Source of the DNA: an uncultured Bacilli bacterium
GTDB lineage: Bacteria; Bacillota_I; Bacilli_A; RF39; UBA660
Direction: 5' to 3'
Length of the DNA: 64,000 bases
Assembly (NCBI GenBank): GCA_947624275.1
Contig: CANQJR010000001.1
Coordinates: 1,064-65,063, forward strand
The notes under the pieces are model-generated. The model searched no databases, had not been told where the DNA came from, and saw only the letters and a program-made list of their open reading frames with translations. The first letter of the stretch is position 1. Each line of letters opens with the position of its first letter. The position numbers were made by a program, and so were the translations under genes. Below are positions 8,188-58,582 of this stretch, one piece after another.

Positions 8188-8580
8188 TTATTTTAATTTG
8201 TCGAAAATTTCTTGAATATTCTTGGTTTGAAGTTTTGTCTCTAAATGCAAATCATCATCGGCATATCTCGGAATTAAATGCATGTGATAATGTTTAACTT
8301 CTTGTCCGTAATCGTTGTTTTGGATGAGTGTCAAACCCTCACAACCAAGTCTATCGCGGTAGATGGGATAAAGTTTTTTGACCACTTCTTGAACGTGACT
8401 CAATGTCTGATCATCACAATCTAAGACGTTGTTGTAATGTTTTTTGGGAACGATTAAAGAATGGCCATCTGCTTGGGGGTTAACATCTAAAAAGACTGAG
8501 ACGACATCATCTTCATAGACGATATTACTAGGTATTTCGCCATTTATAATTTTACAAAAAATGCAATCCATAAATTTCAC
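8188..8580 (-). CDS. HIT family (histidine triad) nucleotide hydrolase
   Basis: HYHMHLIPR histidine triad; C-x-x-C near the N-terminus (CIFCKI). Confidence 0.85.
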   Translation of the reverse strand: MKFMDCIFCKIINGEIPSNIVYEDDVVSVFLDVNPQADGHSLIVPKKHYNNVLDCDDQTLSHVQEVVKKLYPIYRDRLGCEGLTLIQNNDYGQEVKHYHMHLIPRYADDDLHLETKLQTKNIQEIFDKLK

Positions 8581-8796: not shown

Positions 8797-9534
8797 ATGC
8801 TAAAAATTGATGATTTATCTGTCGAAGTTGATGAACGTGACATTTTAAAAAATTTTGAAATGTCTATTGGCGATGGCGAAATTCATGCCTTGATGGGACC
8901 CAATGGAACTGGTAAGAGCACTTTGTCAAAAGTTATTATGGGTTGTCCAGATTATGTCTTAAAAAGTGGAAAAATTTACTTTAATGGAGAAGACATAACC
9001 GATTTGGAAGTTGATGAGCGCAGTCGCAAAGGGATCTTTTTATCCATGCAGTCACCCATCAGCATCGAAGGTGTTTCCAACAGCGAATTTTTGCGCACGG
9101 CATTGAATGCGCGCAGTTCTGAACCGATTCAATTGTTTGATTTCATCAAGATGATGGAAAGCAATATGCAAGAATTAGACATAAAAAATGACATCGTTCA
9201 CAAACCGATCAATGAGGGAAGTAGTGGGGGAGAGCGAAAGAAAAATGAAGTTCTCCAAATCAAAGTTTTAAAACCGACCCTAATCATTTTAGATGAGGTC
9301 GATAGTGGTCTCGATGTCGACAGTTTAAAAGTCGTTTGTAATAATATTAATAAATATCGTGAAGAAAATCCTAAAGTATCTATTTTGATCATTACACACT
9401 ATGCAAGAATTTTGGAATACATCAAACCAGATTATGTCCACGTCATGGTCGATGGTAAAATCGTCAAGACCGGTGATTATGATTTGGCTTTGGAAATTGA
9501 TAAGACCGGTTATACTGAATGGGTAAATTTGTAG
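8797..9534 (+). CDS. sufC: Fe-S cluster assembly ATPase SufC
   Basis: Walker A GPNGTGKST; SufC-type motifs; first gene of a suf cluster. Confidence 0.9.
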   Translation: MLKIDDLSVEVDERDILKNFEMSIGDGEIHALMGPNGTGKSTLSKVIMGCPDYVLKSGKIYFNGEDITDLEVDERSRKGIFLSMQSPISIEGVSNSEFLRTALNARSSEPIQLFDFIKMMESNMQELDIKNDIVHKPINEGSSGGERKKNEVLQIKVLKPTLIILDEVDSGLDVDSLKVVCNNINKYREENPKVSILIITHYARILEYIKPDYVHVMVDGKIVKTGDYDLALEIDKTGYTEWVNL

Positions 9535-9535
9535 T

Positions 9536-10252
9536 ATGTTAAATTTAAATGTTAATAATAGAGATGCTTTAGAGGATATAATTATTACTGAGGACACTAT
9601 CTTAAAAATTGATTTGGATAATTGTTCTAAAGAAATAAATATAGATGTCATGGATGACATGTGTTTAGAAGTACTAGAAATGGATAATCATACTTCTAAC
9701 GTCATCAATTATAATTTGCGAAGCAATGCACAAGTGATCGTCAATAAATTGGCACGCGATTGTAGTGATACTACTAATGTCACTTTGAGTGGAGATAATG
9801 CCAGTATTAAATACTATTCAAATATTATGAATTTTGATGATAATATTTACACTTTTAAAACGCTACATAAGGCCAATTGTACTAGTAGTGATATATATAA
9901 TTATTGTGTCAACTTCACTAATAGTTCATTTAAGTTTCTAATCGATGGTAAAATTGAAAGAGAGACTGCGGAATGCTATTGCAATCAAGATAATAAAATC
10001 ATTGATATGGCTAATGGTGACAATGCCATTTGTCCTAATTTATTAGTTGATAATGATATGATCAATGCCAATCATTCTGCTTATATTGGCAAGTTCAAAA
10101 AAGATATCGTTTTCTATATGCAAAGTCGTGGTTTGTCAAAACGAGATTGTGATTTCTTGTTGATCAAAGGTTTTTTATTAGGAAAGATGCAACTGGATGA
10201 TAGAACGTTAGAGGAGTATACAAACTTCGTTCAAGACAATGTTGAGTGGTGA
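9536..10252 (+). CDS. sufD: Fe-S cluster assembly protein SufD (short form, 238 aa)
   Basis: Located between sufC and sufS; C-terminal FLLIKGFLLG SufB/D-type motif. About half the usual SufD length. Confidence 0.6.
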   Translation: MLNLNVNNRDALEDIIITEDTILKIDLDNCSKEINIDVMDDMCLEVLEMDNHTSNVINYNLRSNAQVIVNKLARDCSDTTNVTLSGDNASIKYYSNIMNFDDNIYTFKTLHKANCTSSDIYNYCVNFTNSSFKFLIDGKIERETAECYCNQDNKIIDMANGDNAICPNLLVDNDMINANHSAYIGKFKKDIVFYMQSRGLSKRDCDFLLIKGFLLGKMQLDDRTLEEYTNFVQDNVEW

Positions 10253-10257
10253 TAAAA

Positions 10258-11454
10258 ATGAATAGAGAAGATTTTCCAATGTTAAATGACGAAATCGTTT
10301 ATTTCGATAATAGTGCTACTAGTTTTAAACCGCAATGTGTTATCGAGGCGATGAATGAGTACTATACTAAATATTCGGCTAATGCCCATCGTGGGGACTA
10401 TGACATCAGTTTACGCGTCGATCAAGAGTATGAAAGAGTGAGGACAAAAGTCAAAGAATTGATCAGCGCTCAAAGAGATGAAGAGATCGTTTTTACCAAG
10501 GGGACAACTGATGGTTTAAATATGGTAGTCTTTGGCTATATGGCTAAGTTCTTACAAAAAGGCGATGAAGTTTTGATCAGTAAAAGCGAACATGCTTCCA
10601 ATGTTTTGCCGTGGTTTGTCTTAGCTAAAAAGAAGGGAATCGTCATCAAATATATTCCTTTAGATGCGGACTATTCTTTAAATGTGTCGGCAATTGAACC
10701 GATGATTACGGAGAAAACCAAAGTCATTTCTCTTGCTCATGTCACTAATGTCATTGGTGATGTTCGCGATGTTGATGCGATTGGTGAAATCTGCATGAAG
10801 CATGATATCTTGTTCGTCGTTGATGCTGCCCAAAGCATTGGACATATGAAAATAGATGTGCAAAAAAGTCATATCGATTTTTTGGCTTTTTCGGCCCATA
10901 AGATGTTGGGACCAACTGGTGTTGGAGCTCTCTATGGCAAATATTCGCTATTGAATGATATGGATCCAGTTATATATGGCGGTGGTATGAACGCTTTCTT
11001 TGAAAGTGATTACAGCTATGAACTAAAAGAGGTCCCTTGGAAGTTTGAAGCAGGGACTCCCAATATTGCCGAAGTGATAGGAATGGGAAGAGCCATTGAT
11101 TATCTTCAGGAGATGGGTTTGGACAAAATACATGAATATGAAATGCATTTAAAAGAGCTGGCCATTGCCCAATTAGAGAAGATTCCCAATATAAAAGTTT
11201 TTAATAAAAAGGCAGAAAGTGGTATAATAACTTTCAACATCGATAAAGTGTTCAGTCAAGATGCAGTCATCTTTTTAAATAGGTTTAAAATATGTGTTCG
11301 CAGTGGCAATCACTGTGCCAAAATCTTGAAAGATGAAATCGGTGTTACGAATACTTGTCGTGCCAGTTTTTACTTTTATAATACCGAGGAAGAAGTTTTA
11401 AAATTGGTAGAGGCATTAAAATGTCAAGATAAAATTTATGATAATATCATATGA
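10258..11454 (+). CDS. sufS: Cysteine desulfurase SufS
   Basis: PLP-lysine motif FSAHKMLGPTGVGALYG; class V aminotransferase; RBS GGTGA before ATG 10258. Confidence 0.9.
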   Translation: MNREDFPMLNDEIVYFDNSATSFKPQCVIEAMNEYYTKYSANAHRGDYDISLRVDQEYERVRTKVKELISAQRDEEIVFTKGTTDGLNMVVFGYMAKFLQKGDEVLISKSEHASNVLPWFVLAKKKGIVIKYIPLDADYSLNVSAIEPMITEKTKVISLAHVTNVIGDVRDVDAIGEICMKHDILFVVDAAQSIGHMKIDVQKSHIDFLAFSAHKMLGPTGVGALYGKYSLLNDMDPVIYGGGMNAFFESDYSYELKEVPWKFEAGTPNIAEVIGMGRAIDYLQEMGLDKIHEYEMHLKELAIAQLEKIPNIKVFNKKAESGIITFNIDKVFSQDAVIFLNRFKICVRSGNHCAKILKDEIGVTNTCRASFYFYNTEEEVLKLVEALKCQDKIYDNII

Positions 11455-11465
11455 ATTGAGGTGAT

Positions 11466-11894
11466 TTGATGGATGAAAAGTTAAAGCGCGATATCATTTT
11501 GGAACATTATCAGAATCCTTATCACAGAGGACTTATCGATGACGATAGATATGTCAGAGTCAACAGTCGTAATGCTTCTTGTGTCGATAATATCGATGTC
11601 ATGGCTCTAATCGAAAATGGTGTCATCGTCGATGCTAGATTCGATGGTGAAGCTTGTGCCATTTGTACTTCAGCAACTTCCGTCATGTTGAAAACTTTGA
11701 TCGGTAAGACTGTCGAAGAGGCCGAAGTGATAATTGCTAATTTTAACAATATGATCAATGAACAAGAATATGATGGATCTAAATTGGCTGAATTGAATGT
11801 CTACGATACTATTTATCGTCAACCAAATCGTAAGACTTGTGCTCTATTGCCTTTTAGGGCTATTAAAGATATAATTGATTCAAAAAAAAATTAG
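11466..11894 (+). CDS. sufU: Fe-S cluster scaffold SufU (IscU/NifU-like)
   Basis: GEACAICTSATS active-site region; RBS GAGGTGA. Confidence 0.85.
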   Translation: MMDEKLKRDIILEHYQNPYHRGLIDDDRYVRVNSRNASCVDNIDVMALIENGVIVDARFDGEACAICTSATSVMLKTLIGKTVEEAEVIIANFNNMINEQEYDGSKLAELNVYDTIYRQPNRKTCALLPFRAIKDIIDSKKN

Positions 11895-11918
11895 ATATAT
11901 AAATTGGAGGTTTTGTTT

Positions 11919-12332
11919 ATGAATAATTCATTAAAAATTTATCGTACAAAGGATTTAGATATGGTGGCTGTTAGAAAATATAGTGGTGAAGAAAACGGTA
12001 TGCACGTTTGGATTTTCCAAGGGTTTGACTTCGTCAAGAATGATGGTGTTGGTCATGCTGCAAGCGTCTTGGAAGATACTGATTACCAATATTTACCAAT
12101 GATTGAAGATGAGAATAGTCTCAATCGTGGTAGATACATCCATGCGGGATTAAAACTTGGGGACATTCGCATAGTAGGCGATGTTCCTGAACATATGAAT
12201 CCTCTTCGCTGTTCTATTTTACCATTCATATCTAACAAATCATTAGTGAAGTGGATTGAAAAACATCCCAATATTTCTTTTGTACACGATGAGAGAGATG
12301 TAGGAAAAGTAAAAAAACTCGGTTCGAGATAA
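11919..12332 (+). CDS. Hypothetical protein inserted between sufU and sufB
   Basis: 137-aa ORF with RBS GGAGG; no recognisable motif; same strand and tight spacing inside the suf operon. Confidence 0.5.
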   Translation: MNNSLKIYRTKDLDMVAVRKYSGEENGMHVWIFQGFDFVKNDGVGHAASVLEDTDYQYLPMIEDENSLNRGRYIHAGLKLGDIRIVGDVPEHMNPLRCSILPFISNKSLVKWIEKHPNISFVHDERDVGKVKKLGSR

Positions 12333-12347
12333 ATATAGGAGGAAATT

Positions 12348-13658
12348 ATGGAAATTGTAGGAATTGATGAAAAAAAAGTCCAACAGATTTCACAGATTAA
12401 GGCTGAAGATGATTGGGTTTTAAAATATAGATTACAAAGTTATAAGAATTTCTGCAATTTGGATATGCCTGATTTTGGTCCTGAGTACGATTTGGATTTT
12501 GATCAAATAATCTATTATAAAAACAATGAAGATGAAAAGATGACGAGTGATTGGAATCAAATTGATAACGATATTAAATGTGAATTGTCTTGTTTGGGTG
12601 TCTTGGAGAGTGAAAAGCATTTAGATGGTATGGGAGTTCAGTACGAAAGTGAAGTCATATATCACAATATGCTTGAGGAATTGAAACAAAAAAATGTCAT
12701 TTTCACTTCAATTGAAGAGGGAATGAAAAAATATCCCGACATCTTCAAAAAATATTTTGGCAAAATTGTGACCAATGCTGAGAACAAGTTTGCAGCTCTG
12801 AATGGGAGTGTCTTTAGTGGGGGAAGTTTTATTTATATTCCACCTCATACTAAATTAGATCGTCCTCTCCAAAGTTATTTTCGCATCAATTCCCGTGGAA
12901 TGGGACAGTTTGAGCGCACTTTGATCGTCGTCGATGATTATAGTGATTTACATTACGTCGAAGGGTGTACAGCTCCGATGTATAGCGATTCTTCTCTTCA
13001 TGCAGCCGTCGTCGAAATATACGTTGGAAAACATAGCAAATGTCGTTATTCAACTATTCAAAACTGGGCTCATAACGTTTTAAACCTAGTTACTAAAAGA
13101 GCTCTTGTCGAAGAAAATGGAACGATGGAGTGGATTGATGGTAATATCGGTAGCAAAGTGACGATGAAATACCCATGTTGTGTATTAAAAGGTGATAACA
13201 GTTCCGGTACTTGCATTACCATAAGTGTAGCTACTGATGGTCAACAACAGGATAGTGGTGCGAGAATGATCCATTTGGGTAAGAATACTAAGAGTAATAT
13301 CATTTCTAAAAGTATTGCGCGCAGTGGTGGTAATGCTAGCTATCGTGGCAAAGTTGACATCAAAGAGCAAGCATTCAATAGTGAAGCAATGGTTAAGTGC
13401 GATACATTGATTTTAGATCACAATTCTAAAAGTGATACTTATCCAACCAATATTTGTCGCAATAGTTCTAGCAGTCTCGAACATGAAGCAACGGTTTCTA
13501 AGATTAGCGAAGAAAAATTGTTTTACATGATGAGTCGTGGCATTCCTAGAGAAAAAGCCATTGAGTTAATCGTTTTGGGCTTCATCGAACGCTTTCGCGA
13601 AGAGTTGCCAATGGAATATGCAGTTGAACTCAATCAATTGTTAAAAAATAATTTATAA
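12348..13658 (+). CDS. sufB: Fe-S cluster assembly protein SufB
   Basis: Strong SufB similarity along its length (e.g. GQFERTLIVVDD, KHSKCRYSTIQNW); RBS AGGAGG. Confidence 0.9.
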   Translation: MEIVGIDEKKVQQISQIKAEDDWVLKYRLQSYKNFCNLDMPDFGPEYDLDFDQIIYYKNNEDEKMTSDWNQIDNDIKCELSCLGVLESEKHLDGMGVQYESEVIYHNMLEELKQKNVIFTSIEEGMKKYPDIFKKYFGKIVTNAENKFAALNGSVFSGGSFIYIPPHTKLDRPLQSYFRINSRGMGQFERTLIVVDDYSDLHYVEGCTAPMYSDSSLHAAVVEIYVGKHSKCRYSTIQNWAHNVLNLVTKRALVEENGTMEWIDGNIGSKVTMKYPCCVLKGDNSSGTCITISVATDGQQQDSGARMIHLGKNTKSNIISKSIARSGGNASYRGKVDIKEQAFNSEAMVKCDTLILDHNSKSDTYPTNICRNSSSSLEHEATVSKISEEKLFYMMSRGIPREKAIELIVLGFIERFREELPMEYAVELNQLLKNNL

Positions 13659-21232: not shown

Positions 21233-22387
21233 GTGAATATTTTGAAGAAATTTGTAGTTTTATCATTGATGATTTTAGTCTTGTTGGGAAGTGTCAAACT
21301 TGTAAGAGCTGAAGAAAATCTTTTAGGAAATGCCAATTCTGGTCTGTTGATGGAAGCTAGTAGTGGCAAAATTATTTATGAAAAAAATAAAGATGAACAG
21401 GTTGCTGTGGCATCGATGACCAAAATGGTTGGCTTAATCATCATCATGGAGAAATTAGAAAGCGGTGAACTGACTTTGGATGAAATCGTCACAGCTAGTA
21501 AAAATGCCAGTGGTATGGGTGGATCACAAATCTATTTAGATACTGGTGAAAAAATGAGTGTTAAAGATTTGATCAAGGGCATAACAATGGCTAGTGCGAA
21601 TGATGCCACAGTAGCAATGGCCGAGAGAATTGCGGGAACGGAAAGTAAATTTGTGGAGTTGATGAATGCTAAAGTAAAAGAATTAGGTTTAAAAAATACC
21701 CATTTTGTCAATTCGACTGGGTTGGATGAAGATGACCATTACTCCAGTGCCAATGATATGGCCATCATCGCTAGAGAACTTTTAAAACATGAACAAATTC
21801 TTGATTTTACTTCTGTCTATGAAGATTATTTAAGAGTTGATACCCCTAATAAATTTTGGTTGGTCAATACGAATAAATTAGTTCATCTTTATGAAGGAGC
21901 AGATGGACTAAAAACGGGATTTACCGATAATGCTGGCTATTGTATGGCCGTCACAGCTAAAAGAAATGGTATGCGTTTGATCGCCATCGTCTTAGGAGAG
22001 CCCAAAGGAAGTATCCGCAATGAAGAAACTTCCGAATTATTAGATTATGGTTTCAACACTTATAAAGTTCTCACTCTAAAAAGTAAAGATGATGTAATTG
22101 ACACTATCAAGTTTAATAAAAGTACTAAAGATGAGGTCGATCTATATCTGCAAAGGGATGCCTCAGTCTTGATCAAACAGAGCGACAATACTTCTGGCTA
22201 TGATACCGAAATTAGACTTGATGCGGTCAAATTGCCATTAAAAAGTGGTGATTCTGTCGGAAAACTCTTGATCAAAAAAGATGATGAAGTAATTGATCAA
22301 ATCGATCTGATCGTCAAAGAAGATGTCAATTCGAAAAACTTTTGGCAAATTTGGTTAGATGTCATTGAAGATACGCTTATTACTTAA
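21233..22387 (+). CDS. Serine-type D-Ala-D-Ala carboxypeptidase (PBP5/DacB-like, peptidase S11)
   Basis: SxxK ASMTK, SxN-like SAND, KTG; signal peptide. TTG 21242 is an alternative start after GAGGTG. Confidence 0.8.
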   Translation: MNILKKFVVLSLMILVLLGSVKLVRAEENLLGNANSGLLMEASSGKIIYEKNKDEQVAVASMTKMVGLIIIMEKLESGELTLDEIVTASKNASGMGGSQIYLDTGEKMSVKDLIKGITMASANDATVAMAERIAGTESKFVELMNAKVKELGLKNTHFVNSTGLDEDDHYSSANDMAIIARELLKHEQILDFTSVYEDYLRVDTPNKFWLVNTNKLVHLYEGADGLKTGFTDNAGYCMAVTAKRNGMRLIAIVLGEPKGSIRNEETSELLDYGFNTYKVLTLKSKDDVIDTIKFNKSTKDEVDLYLQRDASVLIKQSDNTSGYDTEIRLDAVKLPLKSGDSVGKLLIKKDDEVIDQIDLIVKEDVNSKNFWQIWLDVIEDTLIT

Positions 22388-22440
22388 GTGTATTTTTTAT
22401 CATTTTGTGTTATTCTATATATGGAATAGGATGATGCTTG

Positions 22441-23493
22441 ATGAAAGAGTTGTTTTATGAAATGTTGAAAGAGGCCCAAGATGGTAAAATCGTCGTCGAT
22501 GGTGAAGAGTGGCCCATCGGTTTTAATACGATGATTCATGCTGATGGCGAATTGCAAGAAAACTTTTATTCAGCGCAAAATTTATCAACATTGATGATTG
22601 AGGATGAAGATTTGTTCTTTCAAAAACTCCATCAGTATTTGGAAAAAATTCCTGAAGAAGAAAAGAGTCGCAATCGCAAATTAGTCCTTGCTTATCTGTT
22701 TGTCAATGCCACGACAGAAGATTTTATGCATCCAATCGAGTACATTGATCGAAGAATCGACTATTTAGATGATAGAACCTTTGAAGATTTGGAATCAGGA
22801 CTAGAATTGAATCTCGATGGTCTTTTTGATGGTTACCATCTAGAGGTGAAAAACGATTATCAAAGTTTTATGATGGAGACTCCTCACAAAATGTCTTTCA
22901 CCATTTTGTCCAATGAGGGTTATCGCTATCACTTGCCAACTATTTCTTATGGAATGACGACGATCGACAATAAAAAGACGTGTGATGTCTACAGCATCTT
23001 GAAACCGAAAGATGGGGAAACGACTCCAGAAGAAGAAAAATTTAGAAAGAAAGTTTCGCGTCAATTATACAAGTTAAATAGCGGCATTAGTTCTTTAGAG
23101 AGTCAAGAGTATCAAGACTATTTAAAGAATGGATTAACTGATGATTACTATCCGGAAAACATATCTGATGTCTCCGTCTCAGCCGTCATGTCACTATCTA
23201 TCTTCACGACTCTTTTGCGCAATCACAACATTCTCGACGTAAGAGGAATACCTTACTTGCCACTTAGGTATCTATCGCGAGAAATCGCTGCAAAAGAAGT
23301 TACAGATATTTCATTAAGGGATAGATTACAAGAACGCAATCAAAAAATTCAAACTAATGTGACTGACAAGTTCATCAGAACTTTTAGAAGAGTTGAACAA
23401 CAATTGGATAACGCGGAAATCACTGCTTATCCATATGAGAATGACGAATTCCTTCACCTCAAGTTGGGGAAGGAGAAAAAGAATAGTCGTTAA
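22441..23493 (+). CDS. Hypothetical protein (351 aa)
   Basis: Long ORF with an AGGATGA RBS-like sequence; no recognisable motifs. Confidence 0.45.
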   Translation: MKELFYEMLKEAQDGKIVVDGEEWPIGFNTMIHADGELQENFYSAQNLSTLMIEDEDLFFQKLHQYLEKIPEEEKSRNRKLVLAYLFVNATTEDFMHPIEYIDRRIDYLDDRTFEDLESGLELNLDGLFDGYHLEVKNDYQSFMMETPHKMSFTILSNEGYRYHLPTISYGMTTIDNKKTCDVYSILKPKDGETTPEEEKFRKKVSRQLYKLNSGISSLESQEYQDYLKNGLTDDYYPENISDVSVSAVMSLSIFTTLLRNHNILDVRGIPYLPLRYLSREIAAKEVTDISLRDRLQERNQKIQTNVTDKFIRTFRRVEQQLDNAEITAYPYENDEFLHLKLGKEKKNSR

Positions 23494-24043: not shown

Positions 24044-24143
24044 GATGTGTCAATAATATAGTAAAGATTTAATAAAAAAAAGTAAGTCTTTGTCGAATGG
24101 ATATAAATGTTCAGCCGATTATTTTATATTTTAGGAGGTGGGG

Positions 24144-24446
24144 ATGGTTAAGATCAATTATGAATATAGAGGAGGGGTGTTATTTGTTAGGATAGAAGGT
24201 AGGTTCAGTTATCAAAACGTGGAACAGATCATTGATTCAATCAGACGAGTTGTTGTGAAAGGAGGTATCATCTATACAGTAATTAATCTCGAAAGAGCTA
24301 AAGTTTTAAACGATAATTATATAGAAATGCTTTTAAAAGATATAAATGATAATGTTTATTTGTGCGGTTGCAATAGTGATCACTATAATAATTATCATCT
24401 GTTAAATACAGAAAACAATATATTTAAATGTATAGGAGGAATATGA
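24144..24446 (+). CDS. STAS-domain anti-sigma-factor-antagonist-like protein (SpoIIAA-like), apparently without the phosphorylatable serine
   Basis: VLFVRIEGRFS...IIYTVINLERAKVLNDNYIEML aligns with SpoIIAA VLxIRLxGELD...IVLNLEDLSFMDSSGLGVIL; NDN replaces DSS. RBS AGGAGG. Confidence 0.5.
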   Translation: MVKINYEYRGGVLFVRIEGRFSYQNVEQIIDSIRRVVVKGGIIYTVINLERAKVLNDNYIEMLLKDINDNVYLCGCNSDHYNNYHLLNTENNIFKCIGGI

Positions 24447-25102
24447 TTACTGATAAAGAAGTTCTCGATTATGATAAATTGATATATAGTATCATTAACA
24501 AATATCGCTTTTTAGGAGAAATAGATGATTTGTATCAAGTCGGGATAATGGGACTTCTCAAGGCATGTAACAATTTTGATAGCAGTTATGATATAAAATT
24601 TTCTACTTATGCCCACACTTACATAGTGGGTGAAGTTTTAAAATATATTCGTGATAATAAAGCTATTAAAGTCAATCGCGATTTGATCCGTTTAAATGTC
24701 AAAGTGGAGAAAGCGCGGGAAGTTCTAAATCAGAAGTTGATGCGTGAAGTGACGACTAGTGAATTGTCTCAATTTTTAGGAATAGATGAAAATCTGATTG
24801 ATGAGGCAATGTTATCTTCTGATTTCGTCAAGAGTCTCGATTATGATTTAAATGATGATGAAGGTAAAGATTTGACTCTTTATGATAGCATCAAATATGA
24901 AGAGAGCGGTTACAATAGCGATTTGATCGATTTACACGACAGTTTACAGACGTTGAACGATGACGAAAAAAAGTTGATAAAGTATCGTTATTTCGACGAC
25001 CGAACGCAAAGTGACATCTCCTCTGAACTGGGGATCAGTCAAGTTCAAGTGTCGCGAACGGAAGCTAAAATATTACAGAAATTGAAAAATAAATTGATAT
25101 AA
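24443..25102 (+). CDS. sigF: Sporulation-type RNA polymerase sigma factor (SigF/SigG family)
   Basis: DLYQVGIMGLLKACNNFD...FSTYAHTYIVGEVLKYIRDN (region 2) and RTQSDISSELGISQVQVSRTEAKILQKLK (region 4) closely match SigF; followed by spoVAC-AD-AE as in clostridia. Confidence 0.75.
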   Translation: MITDKEVLDYDKLIYSIINKYRFLGEIDDLYQVGIMGLLKACNNFDSSYDIKFSTYAHTYIVGEVLKYIRDNKAIKVNRDLIRLNVKVEKAREVLNQKLMREVTTSELSQFLGIDENLIDEAMLSSDFVKSLDYDLNDDEGKDLTLYDSIKYEESGYNSDLIDLHDSLQTLNDDEKKLIKYRYFDDRTQSDISSELGISQVQVSRTEAKILQKLKNKLI

Positions 25103-25169
25103 AATTCCTTAACGGAATTTTTTTTGTATGAAAATAAAAAAAGAAACCATTCTATAAATGGGTGATATT

Positions 25170-25613
25170 ATGGAAAAAAGAGATTATAAAAAAATAGTTG
25201 ATCGCCATAAACCGACGGAAAATAGGCTCTTCAATGCCATTATTGCTTTTGCTGTCGGTGGATTAGTTGGCTTGATAGGACAGTTGTTGATCGAATTTTA
25301 TTCGTCGTGGTTATCGATACCGACACAGGATGCCACGTCTTTTATGATCGTGACCTTGGTGTTTGTCTCATGTCTTTTTACAGCCTTAGGCTTTTTTGAC
25401 AAATGGGTAACTTTTGCTAAATGCGGATTGATCATTCCCATTACAGGTTTTGCGCATTCCATGATGAGTAGTGGAATGGAATATCGCAATGAGGGACCAA
25501 TTTTTGGAGTGGGAGCCAATCTTTTCAAATTGGCGGGATCCGTCATTCTCTATGGCATTGTTGCAGCGTGGTTCTTTGGCATGATCAGATTTGTGTTTTT
25601 GGGAGGTGTCTAA
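25170..25613 (+). CDS. spoVAC: Stage V sporulation protein AC
   Basis: AFAVGGLVGLIGQ...ITGFAHSMMSSGMEYRNEGPIFGVGANLFKLAGSVILYG matches SpoVAC. Confidence 0.85.
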   Translation: MEKRDYKKIVDRHKPTENRLFNAIIAFAVGGLVGLIGQLLIEFYSSWLSIPTQDATSFMIVTLVFVSCLFTALGFFDKWVTFAKCGLIIPITGFAHSMMSSGMEYRNEGPIFGVGANLFKLAGSVILYGIVAAWFFGMIRFVFLGGV

Positions 25614-26609
25614 ATGACCTTTACTTATAGTGACGTGTATGTGAATAATTATGCGACAGTTGGTGGGCCATATGAAAAAGATGGACCATTGGGACCTAGC
25701 ATTGATAAAGTTTATACCAATCTATACGCTGGGAAAAAAACTTGGGAACAAGCTGAAGTTAAGATGTTGTCAGACAGCATTGATTTGGTTTTGCGCAAGA
25801 GCAAAAAAAATAGTAAGGACATCGATCTGTTGATCAGTGGTGATCTGTTGAATCAGGTGACCGCCTCTAGTTATGCCGCTCTCAATTTTGACATTCCGTT
25901 CTTCGGCATTTATGGAGCGTGTTCCAGTAGTGTCGAAGGAATCATTTTGATGAGTTCTTTGATCGATGGCAAGAAGATCAAAAATGGTATCATCTCGGTG
26001 TCATCGCACAATATGTCAAGTGAGAAACAATTTCGCAATCCGACTGAATATGGGGCACCTAAACCTAAAACAGCTACTTTTACATCTACAGGTGGAGCGA
26101 GCATTTTCTTGAGCAGTCAAAAGAGTAAGATCAGAGTGGAATCTTCCACTATAGGTAAAGTGACTGATATGGGACAGACTGATCCCTTTAATATGGGAGC
26201 TGTCATGGCCGCAGCAGCTGGCGATACCATTTATCGCCATTTAAAAGATATGAAACGCTCTGTCGATGATTACGATCTAATTTTAACTGGTGACTTAGGC
26301 ATCTATGGAAAAGAGATTTTAATCGATTACATGAAAAAAGAATATGACATAGATTTGGGAAAAAATTATGATGACAGTGGTACGATGCTTTACGATTATG
26401 CTAAACAAAAAGAAGTGTTAGCTGGTGCGAGTGGACCTCTATGCATTGCGATGGTGAGCTATACTAGTGTTTTACCAATGATTGAAAAGGGAAAGTATCA
26501 CCGCGTTTTATTGGTGGCTACTGGGGCTCTTTTCTCTCCAACTTTTGTCTACCAACATCAACCCATTTATTCAATTAGTCATGCCGTTTGTTTGGAGGGG
26601 ATTAAATGA
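25614..26609 (+). CDS. spoVAD: Stage V sporulation protein AD
   Basis: About 330 aa, thiolase-like, SpoVAD-like N-terminus, Cys in GACSSS; operon position. Confidence 0.8.
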   Translation: MTFTYSDVYVNNYATVGGPYEKDGPLGPSIDKVYTNLYAGKKTWEQAEVKMLSDSIDLVLRKSKKNSKDIDLLISGDLLNQVTASSYAALNFDIPFFGIYGACSSSVEGIILMSSLIDGKKIKNGIISVSSHNMSSEKQFRNPTEYGAPKPKTATFTSTGGASIFLSSQKSKIRVESSTIGKVTDMGQTDPFNMGAVMAAAAGDTIYRHLKDMKRSVDDYDLILTGDLGIYGKEILIDYMKKEYDIDLGKNYDDSGTMLYDYAKQKEVLAGASGPLCIAMVSYTSVLPMIEKGKYHRVLLVATGALFSPTFVYQHQPIYSISHAVCLEGIK

Positions 26610-26956
26610 TTTATTTATATTCATTCTTATTCGCTGGTTTTGTTTCACTAGTGGGGCAAATAATCCTAGATAATACTAAGTTGACTGCTGGTCATATCAC
26701 GAGTATTTTTGTCGTCATAGGTGCCGCTTTGGACAGTTTCAGTTTTTATGATAAAATTATTGCTCACGTTGGTGGTGGAGCCTTGGTTCCAATAACTTCC
26801 TTTGGACATTCACTAATTCATGGAGCTTTGGCGAAGGCCGAAGAGATGGGCTTCATCGGTCTTTTGACAGGTATGTTTGAATTGACAGCTTCCGGAATAA
26901 CAGCCGCTATCTTATTCACTTTTATTCTATTATTAATCTTTAAACCTCAAAATTAA
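26606..26956 (+). CDS. spoVAEb: Stage V sporulation protein AEb
   Basis: 116 aa; FLFAGFVSLVGQ...ITSFGHSL...GLLTGMFELTASG matches SpoVAEb. Confidence 0.8.
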   Translation: MIYLYSFLFAGFVSLVGQIILDNTKLTAGHITSIFVVIGAALDSFSFYDKIIAHVGGGALVPITSFGHSLIHGALAKAEEMGFIGLLTGMFELTASGITAAILFTFILLLIFKPQN

Positions 26957-26979
26957 AAATGCATTTTCATGCATTTTTT
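26956..26979. terminator. Bidirectional rho-independent terminator between spoVAEb (+) and the 26978 (-) gene
   Basis: AAAATGCA-ttttca-TGCATTTT stem flanked by A/T runs on both sides. Confidence 0.65.
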
Positions 26980-28153
26980 ATTTATCATTTGTAGGTTGAA
27001 TTACTTGATCTAGCGGTGTTGCCACTTCAGGTTGTTGTACAACTTTATCATCTGTCACTGGAGAGGGTTGAACTACTTGGTCTAGTGGGGTTGCATTAAC
27101 AGCGTTATCACTATTAGTGACTGTTGGCTGTTCTAGTGGTGGTTCTGGTTCTGGTGTTGGAATAAATGTATCACTTGGAGCAGGAGGTGTACTGGTTTCA
27201 ACGATTGGTGTAGTTACTTCATCAGTATTTTCGGCACTGTTTTGATCGTCGCCACTGATCATTGGAATGACAGCTTCAGGTAAGTTTTCTTGGGTGAAAT
27301 GTGGATTGATGACTTTTTCATGATGAACTTCTTCAACTTCTTTAATCACTGGTTCCACGATTGGTTTTGGCACTTCTTTTTTCATCTCTTCGGGCTCTTT
27401 TTTTCTATATTTATCACTAACTACAGCTGTCGGATTTGGTGCATCAACAACTACTTGTGGTTCGGCACTTTTTTCAATGATATCTTCAATCTCTTTTTCT
27501 TGAGCGTAGTCTTTATCCAAGTAATATACTCTAAACATCGGATTGAGAATGAACATTCCTAATGAGGCAAACATCAATGACGTTTTAACTTTATCCATAG
27601 CTGAGTCTTTTTTTAATGTCACGGTAGTAGTTTGTCCCAAAAGACTACTGGTATTATTGACATTTTTATTTTCGTTTTGGCTAGTCACAAAATTGAAGAT
27701 GAAAGTAAAGGCGATGAGCGCAGCTGTCAATTTTTGAATTTTTCCGTGACTGGTATTGGCAGGCGGAATTTCAAAGACTAATACTAAGAGAATGGAAAGC
27801 ATTAACAAATTGACAAATATATTGATAACTGTATTTAACTGCTCAGTCATCTTTATGTTGAAGATTAAGAAAATGGCAATGCTCAATAAGAATATCAATC
27901 CTAAAAAGATAGCGATATAACCGAAAACCGTATTTTTGCGATTGGCTATTACATTTCCCGCTCTTGAAAAGACAAAACTCATGGCAGTGATAGCCACTGT
28001 TATCAATAAGATATTGCTTCCAGTCGTATCAATTCCGGTACTGGTCATTTTATCTGACAAATTGATGACACCAATTGATGATAGACATAATACGATCAAT
28101 GATATTACTGTTATGACCATCAAAGCTTTATATATTTTTTGAAAAGTATCCAT
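26978..28153 (-). CDS. Polytopic membrane protein with a Pro/Thr/Gln-rich extracytoplasmic C-terminal repeat region
   Basis: Five or six N-terminal TM helices; C-terminal tandem repeats (ATPLDQVIQP / ATPLDQVVQP); RBS AAGGAG before the MDTFQK start. Confidence 0.6.
   Translation of the reverse strand: MDTFQKIYKALMVITVISLIVLCLSSIGVINLSDKMTSTGIDTTGSNILLITVAITAMSFVFSRAGNVIANRKNTVFGYIAIFLGLIFLLSIAIFLIFNIKMTEQLNTVINIFVNLLMLSILLVLVFEIPPANTSHGKIQKLTAALIAFTFIFNFVTSQNENKNVNNTSSLLGQTTTVTLKKDSAMDKVKTSLMFASLGMFILNPMFRVYYLDKDYAQEKEIEDIIEKSAEPQVVVDAPNPTAVVSDKYRKKEPEEMKKEVPKPIVEPVIKEVEEVHHEKVINPHFTQENLPEAVIPMISGDDQNSAENTDEVTTPIVETSTPPAPSDTFIPTPEPEPPLEQPTVTNSDNAVNATPLDQVVQPSPVTDDKVVQQPEVATPLDQVIQPTNDK
26985..27150 (-). 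repeat. Imperfect tandem nucleotide repeat (about 75-nt period) encoding ATPLDQV(V/I)QP peptide repeats
   Basis: GTTGAATTACTTGATCTAGCGGTGTTGCCAC... recurs as GTTGAACTACTTGGTCTAGTGGGGTTGCA... Confidence 0.5.
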
Positions 28154-28275
28154 AAATAACAACTCCTTTATTATATATACTAAATATATACTAACATAAA
28201 ATAACATTTTTTGATATTTATTTTTTAAAAAATTAACTCAAATATGTTATTATATTAATATGTGGGTGTGATGAT

Positions 28276-35306: not shown

Positions 35307-35336
35307 TTGACTATGACAAAAAAATTATATTACAAT
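35307..35336 (+). promoter_or_regulatory. Sigma-A-type promoter of nrdD (TTGACT-18-TACAAT)
   Basis: Near-consensus -35 and -10 hexamers about 40 nt upstream of the nrdD ATG. Confidence 0.5.
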
Positions 35337-35376
35337 GGCATTGAAAAGAGGTAATATTGAAAGGAGTATTTTGTTT

Positions 35377-37686
35377 ATGAATGAAGAGACTTTAAACAAC
35401 TTGAAAGTAGTCAAAAGAAATGGTAAAAAAGTTGATTTTGACGGAACAAAAATTGCTGTTGCAATAAAAAAAGGTTTTGATAATTTAAAAACGGATCGTT
35501 ATGCATATTTATCTTTAGGTAATGAATATACTGAAAAAGATAGCCAAAAAGTATTTCAATCTGTTATGAAGAGAATAGATAAAGAATATAGAGACGCTGA
35601 TAAGATTAAAATTGAAGAAATTCAAGACATGATTGAAGATGAACTCAAGAAAAAAGGTTATACAGATGTATATGAATCTTTTGCTGATTATCGTGAGAAG
35701 AGAAGACAATCACGTGAAATGTTCTCCGATGATAAAAAGATGCATAAATTCTTGAAGACGATAGAAGGTTTAGGACTAAAGTCATCTGTTGAAGACAACA
35801 CTAAGAGAGAAAATGCTAACGTCAATGGTGATACAGCTATGGGAACGATGCTTCAATACGGTTCAACTGTATCCAAAGAATTTGCTAAAGATTATTTGAT
35901 GAAAAAGAAATTTGCTGATCTTCATGACAATGGTGATATTCACATCCATGATTTGGATTTTATGCCAATGGGAACTACTACTTGTATGCAAATCGATTTG
36001 GAAAAATTGTTCAAGAATGGTTTTTCGACAGGACATGGACATTTGAGAACACCAAATGACATCATGAGTTATACAGCTCTAGCTGCTATCGCCATCCAAT
36101 CAAATCAAAATGATCAACATGGTGGACAGAGCATTCCTGCTTTTGATTATTATATGGCTCCAGGAGTGTTGAAGACGTTTAAAAAACAATTTAAACAGAC
36201 GATTGCTGATCTATTAGATTATACTGATTTTAATAAATTTATAAACATGAGTACCATTGCTAAAGACATCGATAAAATTGATAGTATTGATGTCGATCTC
36301 GCAATGTTTGAGAAGTATGAGAAAGATAGTGGACAACTACATCGCTTATTTTCAATGGCTTATGATAAAGCTCTAGCTAAAACTGATCGCATCACTTTTC
36401 AAGCTATGGAGGCTTTCGTTCACAATTTGAACACGATGCATTCAAGAGCTGGTGCACAAGTACCATTCTCATCTATCAATTTCGGAACAGATACATCACT
36501 AGAGGGAAGAATGGTCATCAAGAATTATTTGTTAGCTGTCGACAAAGGATTAGGACATAGTGAGACTCCAATTTTCCCAATATCAATTTTTAAGGTAAAA
36601 GAAGGAGTTAACTATAATCCAGAAGATCCAAACTACGATTTATTCAAATTGTCTTGTAAAGTTTCAGCTAAGAGATTATTCCCTAATTTTTCATTTATCG
36701 ATGCACCATTCAATCTTCAGTATTATAATCCTAATGATTATCGTACAGAAGTTGGTTATATGGGATGTCGTACGAGAGTTTTAGCCAATGTCGTCGATCC
36801 AGATCGTGCCATTACACCTGGACGTGGTAATTTGTCATTTACATCAATCAATTTGCCACGATTAGGAATTAAACATGGTAAGGTATTGGGTAGAGAAGAA
36901 ACTGATTTAGATGGTTTCTTTGAAGAACTCGGTGAGTTGGTTGAGACGGTCAAAGATCAATTATTGGAGAGATTTGAGATTCAATGTAGTAAACATATCT
37001 ATAACTTCCCATTCTTACTCGGACAAGGCGTTTGGTTAGATTCTGAGAAGTTAAAAGATAATGACCGCATTAGAAGAGTGTTGAAACATGGAACTTTAAG
37101 TATCGGTTTCATCGGACTTGCTGAATGCTTAAAAGCTTTGATAGGACAACATCATGGTGAGAGTGACGAAGCTCAAGAATTAGGTCTAAAAATAGTTAAA
37201 TTCATTAGAGATAAATGTGATGAATATTCACAACGCTATAATCTAAACTTTACTTGTTTAGCAACACCTGCTGAAGGGTTGAGTGGAAGGTTTACAAGTA
37301 TTGATAAAGCCATATATGGTAAGATCAAAGGCGTTACAGATCGTGCTTATTACACCAATTCTTTCCACGTTCCAGTATATTACAACATAACTATTAAAAA
37401 TAAACTTCATAAGGAAGGACCATATCATGCCTTGACTAATGCTGGACACATCTCTTATATCGAATTAGATGGTGATCCAAGTGAAAACTTAGATGCCTTC
37501 GAAAGAGTGATAAGAATTATGAAAGAAGAAGGAATTGGTTATGGAGCTGTCAACCATCCTGTTGATCGCGATCCTGTTTGTGGATATGTCGGGGTTATTG
37601 GTGACGTTTGCCCAGGTTGCGGAAGACGCGAGGGTGAAGGTGTAAGTTATGAGAAAATGACTACATTAAATTGTGGTTGTAAATAA
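35377..37686 (+). CDS. nrdD: Anaerobic ribonucleoside-triphosphate reductase (class III), catalytic body ending after the Cys-rich zinc-ribbon segment
   Basis: N-terminal ATP-cone (VVKRNGKKVDFDGTKIAVAIKKGF); class III RNR core; C-terminus ...VCGYVGVIGDVCPGCGRREGEGVSYEKMTTLNCGCK then stop; RBS AAAGGAG. Confidence 0.85.
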   Translation: MNEETLNNLKVVKRNGKKVDFDGTKIAVAIKKGFDNLKTDRYAYLSLGNEYTEKDSQKVFQSVMKRIDKEYRDADKIKIEEIQDMIEDELKKKGYTDVYESFADYREKRRQSREMFSDDKKMHKFLKTIEGLGLKSSVEDNTKRENANVNGDTAMGTMLQYGSTVSKEFAKDYLMKKKFADLHDNGDIHIHDLDFMPMGTTTCMQIDLEKLFKNGFSTGHGHLRTPNDIMSYTALAAIAIQSNQNDQHGGQSIPAFDYYMAPGVLKTFKKQFKQTIADLLDYTDFNKFINMSTIAKDIDKIDSIDVDLAMFEKYEKDSGQLHRLFSMAYDKALAKTDRITFQAMEAFVHNLNTMHSRAGAQVPFSSINFGTDTSLEGRMVIKNYLLAVDKGLGHSETPIFPISIFKVKEGVNYNPEDPNYDLFKLSCKVSAKRLFPNFSFIDAPFNLQYYNPNDYRTEVGYMGCRTRVLANVVDPDRAITPGRGNLSFTSINLPRLGIKHGKVLGREETDLDGFFEELGELVETVKDQLLERFEIQCSKHIYNFPFLLGQGVWLDSEKLKDNDRIRRVLKHGTLSIGFIGLAECLKALIGQHHGESDEAQELGLKIVKFIRDKCDEYSQRYNLNFTCLATPAEGLSGRFTSIDKAIYGKIKGVTDRAYYTNSFHVPVYYNITIKNKLHKEGPYHALTNAGHISYIELDGDPSENLDAFERVIRIMKEEGIGYGAVNHPVDRDPVCGYVGVIGDVCPGCGRREGEGVSYEKMTTLNCGCK

Positions 37687-37709
37687 AAAAAGAAGAGAGG
37701 TAGAAAAAT

Positions 37710-37892
37710 ATGAAAAATGAAATGAAAGAAGAAGAAAAGAAAAATGTAAAAATGGTAGGGGAAGGTGTAGGATTCGAAAGAATTAGAAGAATTACTGGAT
37801 ATCTAGTAGGTACTGTTGATCGCTTTAACGATGCTAAACGTGCTGAAGTAGAAGATCGAGTAAAACATGGTGGAAAAGAAGTTTATCTATAG
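37710..37892 (+). CDS. Separate 60-aa glycyl-radical domain protein matching the NrdD C-terminal tail (RITGYLVG...KRAEVEDRVKH)
   Basis: Own RBS (GAGAGG) and ATG 23 nt after the nrdD stop, in a different frame. Contains the NrdD-type glycyl radical motif R-I-T-G-Y-L and the tail GK/AKRAEVxDRVKH. Confidence 0.65.
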   Translation: MKNEMKEEEKKNVKMVGEGVGFERIRRITGYLVGTVDRFNDAKRAEVEDRVKHGGKEVYL

Positions 37893-37894
37893 AG

Positions 37895-38455
37895 ATGAAC
37901 ATTCGTTTAGCTGCACCGCTTCAGAGAAATAGCATTGTTGATGGAGAAGGAATTAGGGCAGTTGTTTGGACACAGGGGTGTACGCATAATTGCCCTGGTT
38001 GTCACAATCCAGAAACTCATGATTTGACTGGTGGTACTTTGGTGGATATTGAAGAATTGAAAAAAGAGATTAGGTCTTTGAGTGAGGAAAATGGCGTGAC
38101 GTTGAGTGGTGGCGATCCTTTCTTTCAACCAAAAGAATGCCTAGAAGTTGCTAAATGTTGTCATGAATGTGGCTTAAACGTTTGGTGCTATACTGGATAT
38201 ACATATGAACAACTAATGGCATTAGCGAAAAAAAAGAAACAGATTTTGGCTTTTCTGCAAGAGATAGATGTCTTAGTAGATGGACCTTTTATCCTTAAAG
38301 AAAAGAGTTATGATGTCAAATTTCGCGGTTCTAAGAATCAACGCATAATTGATGTCCGTCAGAGTCTAAAGACTAATAAAGTAGTTGAAATTCCTAAATA
38401 TCGTTATGTTGAAAACGCTGTTCCTGAAGAGAGAGAAATAAAGGTATACATTTGA
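37895..38455 (+). CDS. nrdG: Anaerobic ribonucleotide reductase-activating protein (radical SAM)
   Basis: CTHNCPGC radical-SAM cluster motif; position downstream of nrdD. Confidence 0.85.
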   Translation: MNIRLAAPLQRNSIVDGEGIRAVVWTQGCTHNCPGCHNPETHDLTGGTLVDIEELKKEIRSLSEENGVTLSGGDPFFQPKECLEVAKCCHECGLNVWCYTGYTYEQLMALAKKKKQILAFLQEIDVLVDGPFILKEKSYDVKFRGSKNQRIIDVRQSLKTNKVVEIPKYRYVENAVPEEREIKVYI

Positions 38456-57472: not shown

Positions 57473-58582
57473 GTGATGTTTTTGAAAAAGATCATTTTTA
57501 TTTTAATTCTATTATTTATTTCGGTACCAATTAGATGTTTTTCTCTATGTGAGAGTAGTTACAGTTGTCTTTTGATGGATGTCGATAGTGGTAGAGTACT
57601 ATATTCTAAAAGAGCTAATGCTAAACATTTAATTGCTTCTACTACTAAGTTGATGACTTTCTTAGTCGCCTATGAAAATGGCAATTTAGATGACTTATAT
57701 GAAGCTAAAGAAGACATTTTGAAGATGTATGGAACGAGTATTTATTTGAGTCTTGGTGAAAAGATGAGTTTAAAAGATTTATTATATGGCCTAATTCTCA
57801 GAAGTGGGAATGATGCGAGTGTAGTCATAGCCAATAACGTCTTTAAAGATTATGACACTTTTATTGTCAAGATGAATGAGCGTGCTCAAGAATTGGGAAT
57901 GAAGAATACCATTTTTAAAAATCCCCATGGTCTAGACGAAGAAACTGAGAATTATTCCACTAGTCAAGATATGGCTCTTCTGTCCAAATTTTTATACAAT
58001 ATTCCTTTTTTTAGAGTAGTGACCTCAACTAAACATTATCAGACAGCGACGGATTTAAAATCATATGATTGGTATAATCGCAACAAACTTTTAACGCAAT
58101 ACAGATATGCGACAGGCGGGAAGAATGGTTATACACCTAAAGCTGGTAAAACCCTCGTGACAACTGCTTCTAAGAACAATTTATCTTTGACCGCCGTCTC
58201 TTTGGATGATGACAATTTATATGATACCCATATCAGTTTATATGAATATGGCTTTGCCAACTATGAAAGTTATCAAATCATCAATAAAAATACTTTTTCT
58301 TATCGTGATAGTCATTATGACGGCAAAATGTATGTCAATAATTCCTTTTCTTATCCCATTACTTCTGGTGAAAAGGAGAAGTTGGAAGTAGTTATTCAAG
58401 TGATAAAAAAAGTGGATTTAGAGAAAAGTAAAAAAGTCGGTGATGTCATTGTCTATTTTGATGGCGATGAAGTGTATCGTGAAGATCTGTTGATCAAAAA
58501 TAATGGAGTGAACAATGACAGTTTTTTAAAAAGAATCAAAAACTTTTTTCACAATTTTTTCAAAAGATTATCACATTGGTAA
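57473..58582 (+). CDS. Serine-type D-Ala-D-Ala carboxypeptidase (DacF-like, peptidase S11)
   Basis: SxxK ASTTK, SxN SGND, KTG GGKNGYT; signal peptide. ATG 57476 or TTG 57482 are alternative starts. Confidence 0.8.
   Translation: MMFLKKIIFILILLFISVPIRCFSLCESSYSCLLMDVDSGRVLYSKRANAKHLIASTTKLMTFLVAYENGNLDDLYEAKEDILKMYGTSIYLSLGEKMSLKDLLYGLILRSGNDASVVIANNVFKDYDTFIVKMNERAQELGMKNTIFKNPHGLDEETENYSTSQDMALLSKFLYNIPFFRVVTSTKHYQTATDLKSYDWYNRNKLLTQYRYATGGKNGYTPKAGKTLVTTASKNNLSLTAVSLDDDNLYDTHISLYEYGFANYESYQIINKNTFSYRDSHYDGKMYVNNSFSYPITSGEKEKLEVVIQVIKKVDLEKSKKVGDVIVYFDGDEVYREDLLIKNNGVNNDSFLKRIKNFFHNFFKRLSHW

Follow-up and report, generated by a model that had tools for sequence, protein, structure and literature searches.

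The sigF operon in a 64-kilobase (kb) stretch of DNA from an uncultured Bacilli bacterium (contig CANQJR010000001.1; the whole stretch is hereafter called the window, and positions refer to it unless a locus of another genome is named) consists of five close-packed genes on the plus strand (24144-26956), which encode a SpoIIAA-like STAS protein, a sigma-F-type sporulation sigma factor and the products of spoVAC, spoVAD and spoVAEb, and it carries no gene for the anti-sigma kinase SpoIIAB. Comparison with related loci indicates that the whole lineage probably has such a sigF operon without the kinase, and that it has given up the phospho-control of sigma F. The partner switch formed by SpoIIAA, SpoIIAB and sigma F is the textbook source of the difference in gene expression between forespore and mother cell and, to our knowledge, has been thought universal among spore-formers. 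A broad, abundant and uncultured gut lineage appears to have kept sigF, the spoVA genes, a Spo0A box and a SpoIIAA ortholog, and to have dispensed with the kinase and with phospho-control.

The comparison set consisted of the window and 101 further loci (80 loci came from a metagenome scan with sigma factor alignment), and the searches reached across the 64 kb of the window and 4-10 kb of flanking sequence in the relatives. Every open reading frame (ORF) was searched with the SpoIIAB sequences of Bacillus subtilis and Geobacillus using phmmer with the --max option, and with a hidden Markov model (HMM) of the STAS domain. With these two queries neither the window nor any kinase-less locus gave a SpoIIAB match; as a positive control, SpoIIAB was recovered between the STAS and sigma genes in 55 canonical loci with E-values of 1e-31 to 1e-75. 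The sigma factors of the 55 kinase-containing loci are at most ~45% identical to that of the window, and the kinase-less set takes in the window together with every locus whose sigma factor is closer to the window's. Pfam scans of 53 of the ~60 non-overlapping window ORFs of at least 100 amino acids (aa) found no HATPase_c or PP2C domain.

In the window the STAS stop codon (TGA, 24444-24446) overlaps the start codon of the sigma gene (ATG, 24443) within the sequence ATGA at 24443-24446, so that no gene, spoIIAB included, can fit between the two. An earlier reading of the window made from its letters alone (the sequence-only reading) had claimed the gene order STAS, sigma F-like factor, spoVAC-spoVAD-spoVAEb, as in the spoIIA/sigF-spoVA operon, as well as this overlap and the absence of a kinase gene from the operon. 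The order was confirmed by Pfam and NCBIfam matches, and the overlap and the missing kinase also held. Moreover, the same order recurs in assemblies made independently from gut samples of goat, rabbit, human and other sources, and more distant relatives (sigma factors 44-58% identical to that of the window) combine this layout with pdp, vanY and dacF on the 5' side and scpA and scpB on the 3' side. The missing kinase thus appears to be a property of the whole lineage and not an accident of one contig.

A loss of this kind has been reported at the level of gene inventories. In the order RF39, spoIIAB and spoIIE are reduced or absent according to KEGG Orthology (KO) annotation, and spore formation is predicted with 'markedly different ... 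regulation', other sporulation genes being retained (Field, Bowerman and Hugenholtz 2024, PMC10868615). As a group of uncultured gut Bacilli with spoVAD and without spoIIAB, the lineage of the window would suit the description of RF39, that of uncultured gut Bacilli with reduced genomes, better than those of the other two orders treated in the same report. The report gives KO presence and absence only, unlike the present operon-level analysis; neither there nor in our literature search did we find an account of the operon anatomy, the SpoIIAA phosphosite and its release from constraint, the N-terminal deletion of sigma F, or secondary losses of the STAS gene.

The phosphosite of the STAS protein provides the second body of evidence. 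The loop LNDNYIEML (STAS residues 55-63) is free of Ser and Thr. HMMER, MAFFT and hmmalign agree in aligning Asp57 (24312-24314) with Ser58, the phosphorylated residue of B. subtilis SpoIIAA, and Asn56 is aligned with Asp57 of the same protein. Helix alpha-2 of the STAS structure model begins at residue 57, and the phosphorylatable Ser that the DSSG motif places at the N-terminus of this helix is not present in the window protein. The alignment to SpoIIAA therefore puts Asp, and not Ser or Thr, at the phosphosite, as expected from the proposal that the SpoIIAA-like protein lacks a phosphorylatable serine. Close relatives have a Ser one residue further on (LNDSYI), and one locus (L010) has Ser at the site itself (LNSNYI); the total lack of Ser and Thr in the loop is thus peculiar to this genome, and the unconserved site is a clade-wide trait.

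The 55 kinase-containing loci share a loop of the form FMD-S-(S/A/T)G(I/L/V)G, and in them the column of Ser58 is occupied by Ser in 35/35 distinct motifs, as compared with 2/24 distinct motifs in the kinase-less loci, where the column otherwise holds K, D, E, Y, I, Q, M, A, N, L or C (Fisher p=3e-14, the motifs not being phylogenetically independent). An exhaustive profile search over 1.84 billion representatives yielded 225 members of the STAS family. Among the 133 near-full-length members column 58 is the most variable of the loop (D19, K18, E17, S12), and the hydrophobic core and the residues G20, L22, G42, N49, D57 and G60 are conserved in these representatives. Erosion of the contact motif FMD-S-SGIG in the kinase-less clade extends to several positions besides the serine. 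One kinase-less locus in which the STAS gene directly adjoins the sigma gene (L017, 5001-5318 of that locus) keeps a fully canonical IDSSGI loop, which may be either a recent state or a chance retention. Asp57 was also considered as a meaningful phosphomimetic; this was rejected, the same site being K, E, Q, M, I, L or Y across the wider family. Since the serine is unconstrained in kinase-less loci, a kinase encoded at another genomic site, which would have kept it, is unlikely, and we regard the free serine as the strongest available argument against such a kinase. An invariant as opposed to a free serine may accordingly offer a simple sequence marker of whether a SpoIIAA homologue still has its kinase.

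The assignment of the first gene depends on how it is searched. As a single sequence the window protein scores 21.5 bits against PF01740 (STAS), just below the cut-off of 22.6, and 17.5 bits (E=0.003) against TIGR02886 (SpoIIAA), far below the cut-off of 114.75. Orthologs of the STAS protein were found at 49-54% identity, and a profile built from ten orthologs had its best PDB matches in SpoIIAA (1AUZ and 1TH8, E=5e-6). An AlphaFold2 model based on the ortholog alignment (predicted local distance difference test score, pLDDT, 83; predicted template modelling score, pTM, 0.75) was searched with Foldseek, and its best matches were the SpoIIAA chains 1TIL_B, 1TH8_B and 1THN_B (TM 0.78-0.82, E=5e-7), all of which come from SpoIIAA-SpoIIAB complexes. 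The gene also retains the first position of the sigF operon, directly 5' of the sigma gene, with the Spo0A box and the synteny with a dacF-type gene conserved. The latter, a DD-carboxypeptidase gene, is the upstream syntenic neighbour two genes 5' of the operon in the window, a position known from Bacillus too, and it also lies 5' of the STAS-sigma pair in L012, L014, L015 and L017. Judged by the predicted fold, the best profile matches and synteny, the STAS gene is the spoIIAA ortholog. The assignment is weak on the single sequence; with the family profile and the structure model it is firm. It had been set beforehand as refutable by profile searches, and it held up in profile and fold searches alike.

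The sigma ORF contains sigma-70 regions 2, 3 and 4 according to Pfam. It scores highest with the SigB/F/G subfamily model (191 bits), followed by TIGR02885 sigF (186 bits), sigG (139-151 bits) and sigB (118 bits); all these scores fall under the curated equivalog cut-offs (186.4 against 321.45 bits for TIGR02885). Its best PDB match is the Geobacillus sigma F chain 1L0O_C (4e-40), and residue 11 of the window protein aligns to residue 38 of this chain, so that ~27 N-terminal residues are absent relative to Geobacillus sigma F. The window sigma has 28 residues ahead of the DL(Y/F)Q motif, as compared with at least 45 in 53 kinase-linked sigmas. Kinase-less sigmas start 24-28 residues ahead of this motif, at DY.KLIYSII.KY, and all kinase-linked sigmas sampled have the N-terminal helix (L)I.(K/R)..GD..AR..L..N..L(V/I)WS(V/I)V.RF. 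Both comparisons, with Geobacillus sigma F and with the kinase-linked sigmas, thus bear out the N-terminal shortening that had been suspected for this 219-aa protein. Region 2.1 of sigma F is reportedly among three contact sites for SpoIIAB recognised by Decatur and Losick in 1996, a study cited as reference 48 in PMC3174212.

For the history of the locus a neighbour-joining tree was built from sigma cores with the N-termini trimmed. The kinase-less loci form one clade in this tree, with 24 distinct tips and zero kinase-containing members. Eight of the 24 tips have no STAS gene either (L029, L032, L033, L034, L037, L038, L039 and L098), and these tips occupy at least three separate positions in the clade; in L029, L032, L033 and L034 dut lies immediately 5' of sigma-spoVAC-D-Eb. 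The tree is crude and the number of loss events is therefore provisional. The simplest history would be a single loss of spoIIAB and of the N-terminal segment of sigma F, followed by drift of the phosphosite and by several later losses of the STAS gene.

Where the STAS gene is present it is under purifying selection, weaker than that on sigma or spoVAD: the pairwise ratio of nonsynonymous to synonymous substitution rates (dN/dS) among five orthologs (ten pairs) was 0.16-0.53 for STAS, 0.04-0.24 for sigma and 0.04-0.19 for spoVAD. The window copy is the most diverged one, with 50% identity to its relatives as compared with 75% for sigma; it has Phe-Ser in place of the Leu-Asp of the relatives' GELD motif and Asn where the relatives carry Ser58. 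It has also lost the ancestral stop codon, which in the relatives sits inside the ribosome-binding site (RBS) of the sigma gene (TAGGAGG). The window ORF consequently runs three codons further and, as a comparison of 24428-24446 with the region around 10290-10315 in L001, L008, L009 and L010 shows, ends in ...FKCIGGI rather than the ...FNYINI/L of these relatives, which gives rise to the ATGA overlap in place of the gap of 7-12 nucleotides (nt) that separates STAS and sigma in the relatives.

The regulatory signals around the operon were examined in the same set. A perfect Spo0A box (TTTGTCGAA) is located at -52 to -66 from the STAS start in 11/11 divergent kinase-less loci examined, and on the basis of the known consensus and of this conservation the box in the window would function as a Spo0A site. 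On both strands of the 64 kb together this 9-mer is present five times, as compared with 1.5 expected. A promoter scan found no convincing sigma-70 promoter 5' of the STAS gene on the plus strand, which is consistent with a promoter that does not depend on sigma A, without proving it. The hairpin behind the sigma gene (25103..25125) lies under the guanine plus cytosine (G+C) criterion of the scan, and a similar hairpin and T-run are present in relatives. An element TTTGTATA(A)AAA follows the hairpin and T-run 3' of the sigma stop and is conserved in relatives, and a GTATA -35-like element is kept ~45 nt 5' of spoVAC in L001, L008, L009, L011, L014, L017 and L021. The sigma G consensus is GHATR-N18-CATxHTA, which was the basis for calling the window element GTATG-N17-CATTCTA forespore-type. 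To judge from these signals, the operon still looks wired into the cascade from Spo0A through sigma F/G to spoVA. The other four exact copies of TTTGTCGAA are found at 8197, 15033, 34891 (minus strand) and 40368.

We propose that a single deletion removed spoIIAB in the ancestor of this low-G+C, gut-associated clade of Bacilli, and that sigma F would not be governed by the SpoIIAA/SpoIIAB/SpoIIE phospho-switch in the lineage. Spo0A, by driving transcription of the STAS-sigF pair with its coupled translation, would be the main determinant of sigma F activity. The STAS protein would no longer be phosphorylated; still constrained though dispensable, it would persist as a remnant that most likely binds another protein independently of phosphorylation, sigma F being one candidate partner. 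Of the possible roles of the protein, that of a constrained, dispensable remnant agrees best with the repeated losses of the gene. The sequence-only reading had left open either a rewired switch or a decaying module; the dN/dS values below 1 and the three or more losses of STAS favour slow decay of a constrained remnant, and a rewired direct role is less favoured.

Several points weigh against this proposal. A relocated or very divergent anti-sigma factor may be encoded elsewhere in the genome, the search having covered the window and the 4-10 kb flanks, and the tie between the window and the RF39 report is one that we infer. Sporulation of the clade members is putative. Kinase loss, sigma truncation and the relaxed serine were probably each one ancestral event, so that their co-occurrence counts as one observation. 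Finally, purifying selection on STAS means that the protein retains some role.

The alternative that survives best is that the STAS protein is a functionless relic on its way out, retained only through the translational coupling of its gene to sigF, and we give this a minority chance that is to be taken seriously. Within the clade there are at least three separate places where the gene is absent 5' of orthologous sigma-spoVA genes (L029/L032/L033/L034, L037/L038 and L039), its rate of evolution is 2-3 times that of sigma and spoVAD, and in the window it is, as described, both strongly diverged and without its ancestral stop. Coupling of translation by itself, however, would leave the amino acid sequence unconstrained, whereas dN/dS is well under 1 in 10/10 pairs, no locus that carries STAS has a broken ORF, the ORF is likewise intact in over 200 clusters formed at 50% identity, and the close family has 28 invariant columns, among them L55, N56, Y59 and I60 of the loop. 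The core and the six residues conserved across the family point in the same direction.

A further reading, which we hold to be doubtful, is that rewiring has turned STAS into a protein that regulates sigma F directly and without phosphorylation, either an anti-sigma factor or a chaperone, made in a fixed ratio to sigma F by way of the overlapping or adjacent start. The tight linkage of the two genes (the ATGA overlap in the window, the gaps of 7-12 nt in relatives), the purifying selection that still acts on STAS and the simultaneous loss of the N-terminal helix of sigma F would all suit such a role, as would the loop that opens helix alpha-2 and classically forms the surface for partner binding, which is invariant within sub-families and different between them. 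A review and our literature searches, however, yielded no case of direct binding of a STAS protein to a sigma factor, and the STAS-less lineages retain intact sigma-spoVA genes, so that sigma F works without STAS.

The mycobacterial sigma F is controlled by the anti-sigma factor UsfX with the antagonists RsfA and RsfB, and RsfA is a STAS antagonist that acts without phosphorylation. A SpoIIAB-like anti-sigma factor encoded elsewhere in the genome could likewise be antagonised by an unphosphorylated STAS protein, and the entry PDB 8IH8, which we take to be a structure of the mycobacterial control system, is among the fold matches of the STAS model. The mycobacterial system, however, retains UsfX as the target of the antagonist, and no such target was seen at the window locus. 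We judge this arrangement improbable in the window lineage. It is favoured by the small visible portion of the genome (only ~64 kb), by the ability of KO-based absence calls to overlook divergent genes, and by the canonical IDSSGI loop of L017, which has no adjoining kinase. It is opposed by the position of the kinase between STAS and sigma in 55/55 canonical loci, by the erosion of the contact motif FMD-S-SGIG beyond the serine, by the two Ser among 24 motifs, which is the expectation for a free site, and by the report of RF39 as being without spoIIAB and spoIIE (PMC10868615). For a metagenome-assembled contig, an error of assembly or binning is conceivable, as is a pseudogenised operon of one metagenome-assembled genome (MAG), but both are ruled out by the comparative data, the same junction being present in dozens of independent assemblies from varied hosts and pipelines, with all ORFs intact and ribosome-binding sites conserved.

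Compared with the canonical spoIIA operon of Bacillus and Clostridium, the window operon is alike in the STAS fold of its first gene, the sigma-F-type factor, the dacF-type gene on the 5' side, spoVAC/D/Eb on the 3' side, the Spo0A box and the forespore-type promoter before spoVA. It differs in having no spoIIAB, in the change of the phosphosite from Ser to Asp at a position that is unconstrained in the clade, in the length of the STAS protein (100 aa against 117 aa for canonical SpoIIAA, with the alpha-3 region reduced), in a sigma F that is ~27 N-terminal residues short, and in that STAS and sigma both score under the NCBIfam equivalog cut-offs. Turicibacter sanguinis and other Erysipelotrichales belong to the same broad part of Bacilli and have a reduced sporulation gene set as well. 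SpoIIAB is nevertheless kept in T. sanguinis, a spore-forming relative in which SpoIIAA, SpoIIAB and sigma F are encoded by neighbouring genes (PMC13492147).

If the clade sporulates, the cell-specific activation of sigma F must differ from the known one, which would bear on the minimal sporulation circuit. If it does not, its members would offer a natural series for the order in which a partner switch decays, namely kinase, phosphosite and antagonist. On a more speculative view that we consider rather unlikely, a large clade of gut Bacilli sporulates without any anti-sigma-F factor, and the orphan SpoIIAA-like protein acts free of phosphorylation on the truncated sigma F or on a new partner; forespore-specific sigma F activity would then have to arise in another way than through the SpoIIE-SpoIIAA-SpoIIAB switch.

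The features of the operon and its 5' side are listed in Table 1. All three core genes of the dipicolinate channel (spoVAC, spoVAD and spoVAEb) are present in order 3' of sigF. The longest spoVAC ORF begins at 25158, but translation most likely starts from the ATG at 25170, where the relatives read MEKR(D/E)YKK.

Table 1. Features of the kinase-less sigF operon and its 5' side in the window.
Feature	Position	Strand	Basis or remark
dacF/dacB-type DD-carboxypeptidase (Peptidase_S11 + PBP5_C)	21233..22387	+	Pfam E=2e-76
Perfect Spo0A box TTTGTCGAA (contains TGNCGAA)	24089..24097	+	53 nt 5' of STAS start
RBS AGGAGG of STAS gene	24133..24138	+	direct sequence reading; five bases before ATG
SpoIIAA-like STAS protein, 100 aa	24144..24446	+	start ATG 24144, stop TGA 24444-24446
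RBS AGGAGG of sigma gene	24434-24439	+	sequence reading
Sigma-F-type sporulation sigma factor, 219 aa	24443..25102	+	N-terminal '..GD..AR..L' helix missing
AT-rich hairpin AATTCC-TTAAC-GGAATT followed by T-run, terminator-like	25103..25125	+	sequence reading, 3' of sigma stop
Forespore-type (sigma G/F) promoter-like element GTATG-N17-CATTCTA, 5' of spoVAC	25126..25154	+	regex match
spoVAC	25170..25613	+	PF03862 E=3e-33; TIGR02838 155 bits
spoVAD	25614..26609	+	PF07451 E=1.6e-115
spoVAEb	26606..26956	+	Pfam E=2e-25; TIGR02839 128 bits

Directly after spoVAEb and on the opposite strand (26978-28207, minus) lies the gene of a multi-pass membrane protein of 409 aa that has no Pfam match and whose long C-terminal tail is rich in Pro, Thr, Val and Gln; this gene is also found in this position in L001, L005, L008, L009, L010 and L013. 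Between the dacF-type gene and a NUDIX gene an acidic protein of 351 aa without a Pfam match is encoded (22438-23493, plus strand). This ORF was considered as a conserved hidden partner and was rejected, being common only to L010 among the loci fetched; a 96-aa ORF 5' of STAS in L001 was rejected as a conserved partner as well, since it is missing from the window. A gene for a CPBP/Rce1-like intramembrane protease lies between sigma and spoVAC in L008 (10983-11744 of that locus) and L013 (6673-7434 of that locus) and not in the window.

An Rfam scan of the window found no rRNA or other RNA. Elsewhere the window contains a suf operon for Fe-S cluster assembly (8797-13658), the anaerobic ribonucleotide reductase gene nrdD with its activase gene (35335-38455), which suggests that the organism is an anaerobe, a second S11 DD-carboxypeptidase gene (57473-58582), and a gene for an 825-aa protein in which an O-antigen-ligase-like domain is fused to a GT4 glycosyltransferase (2121-4598).

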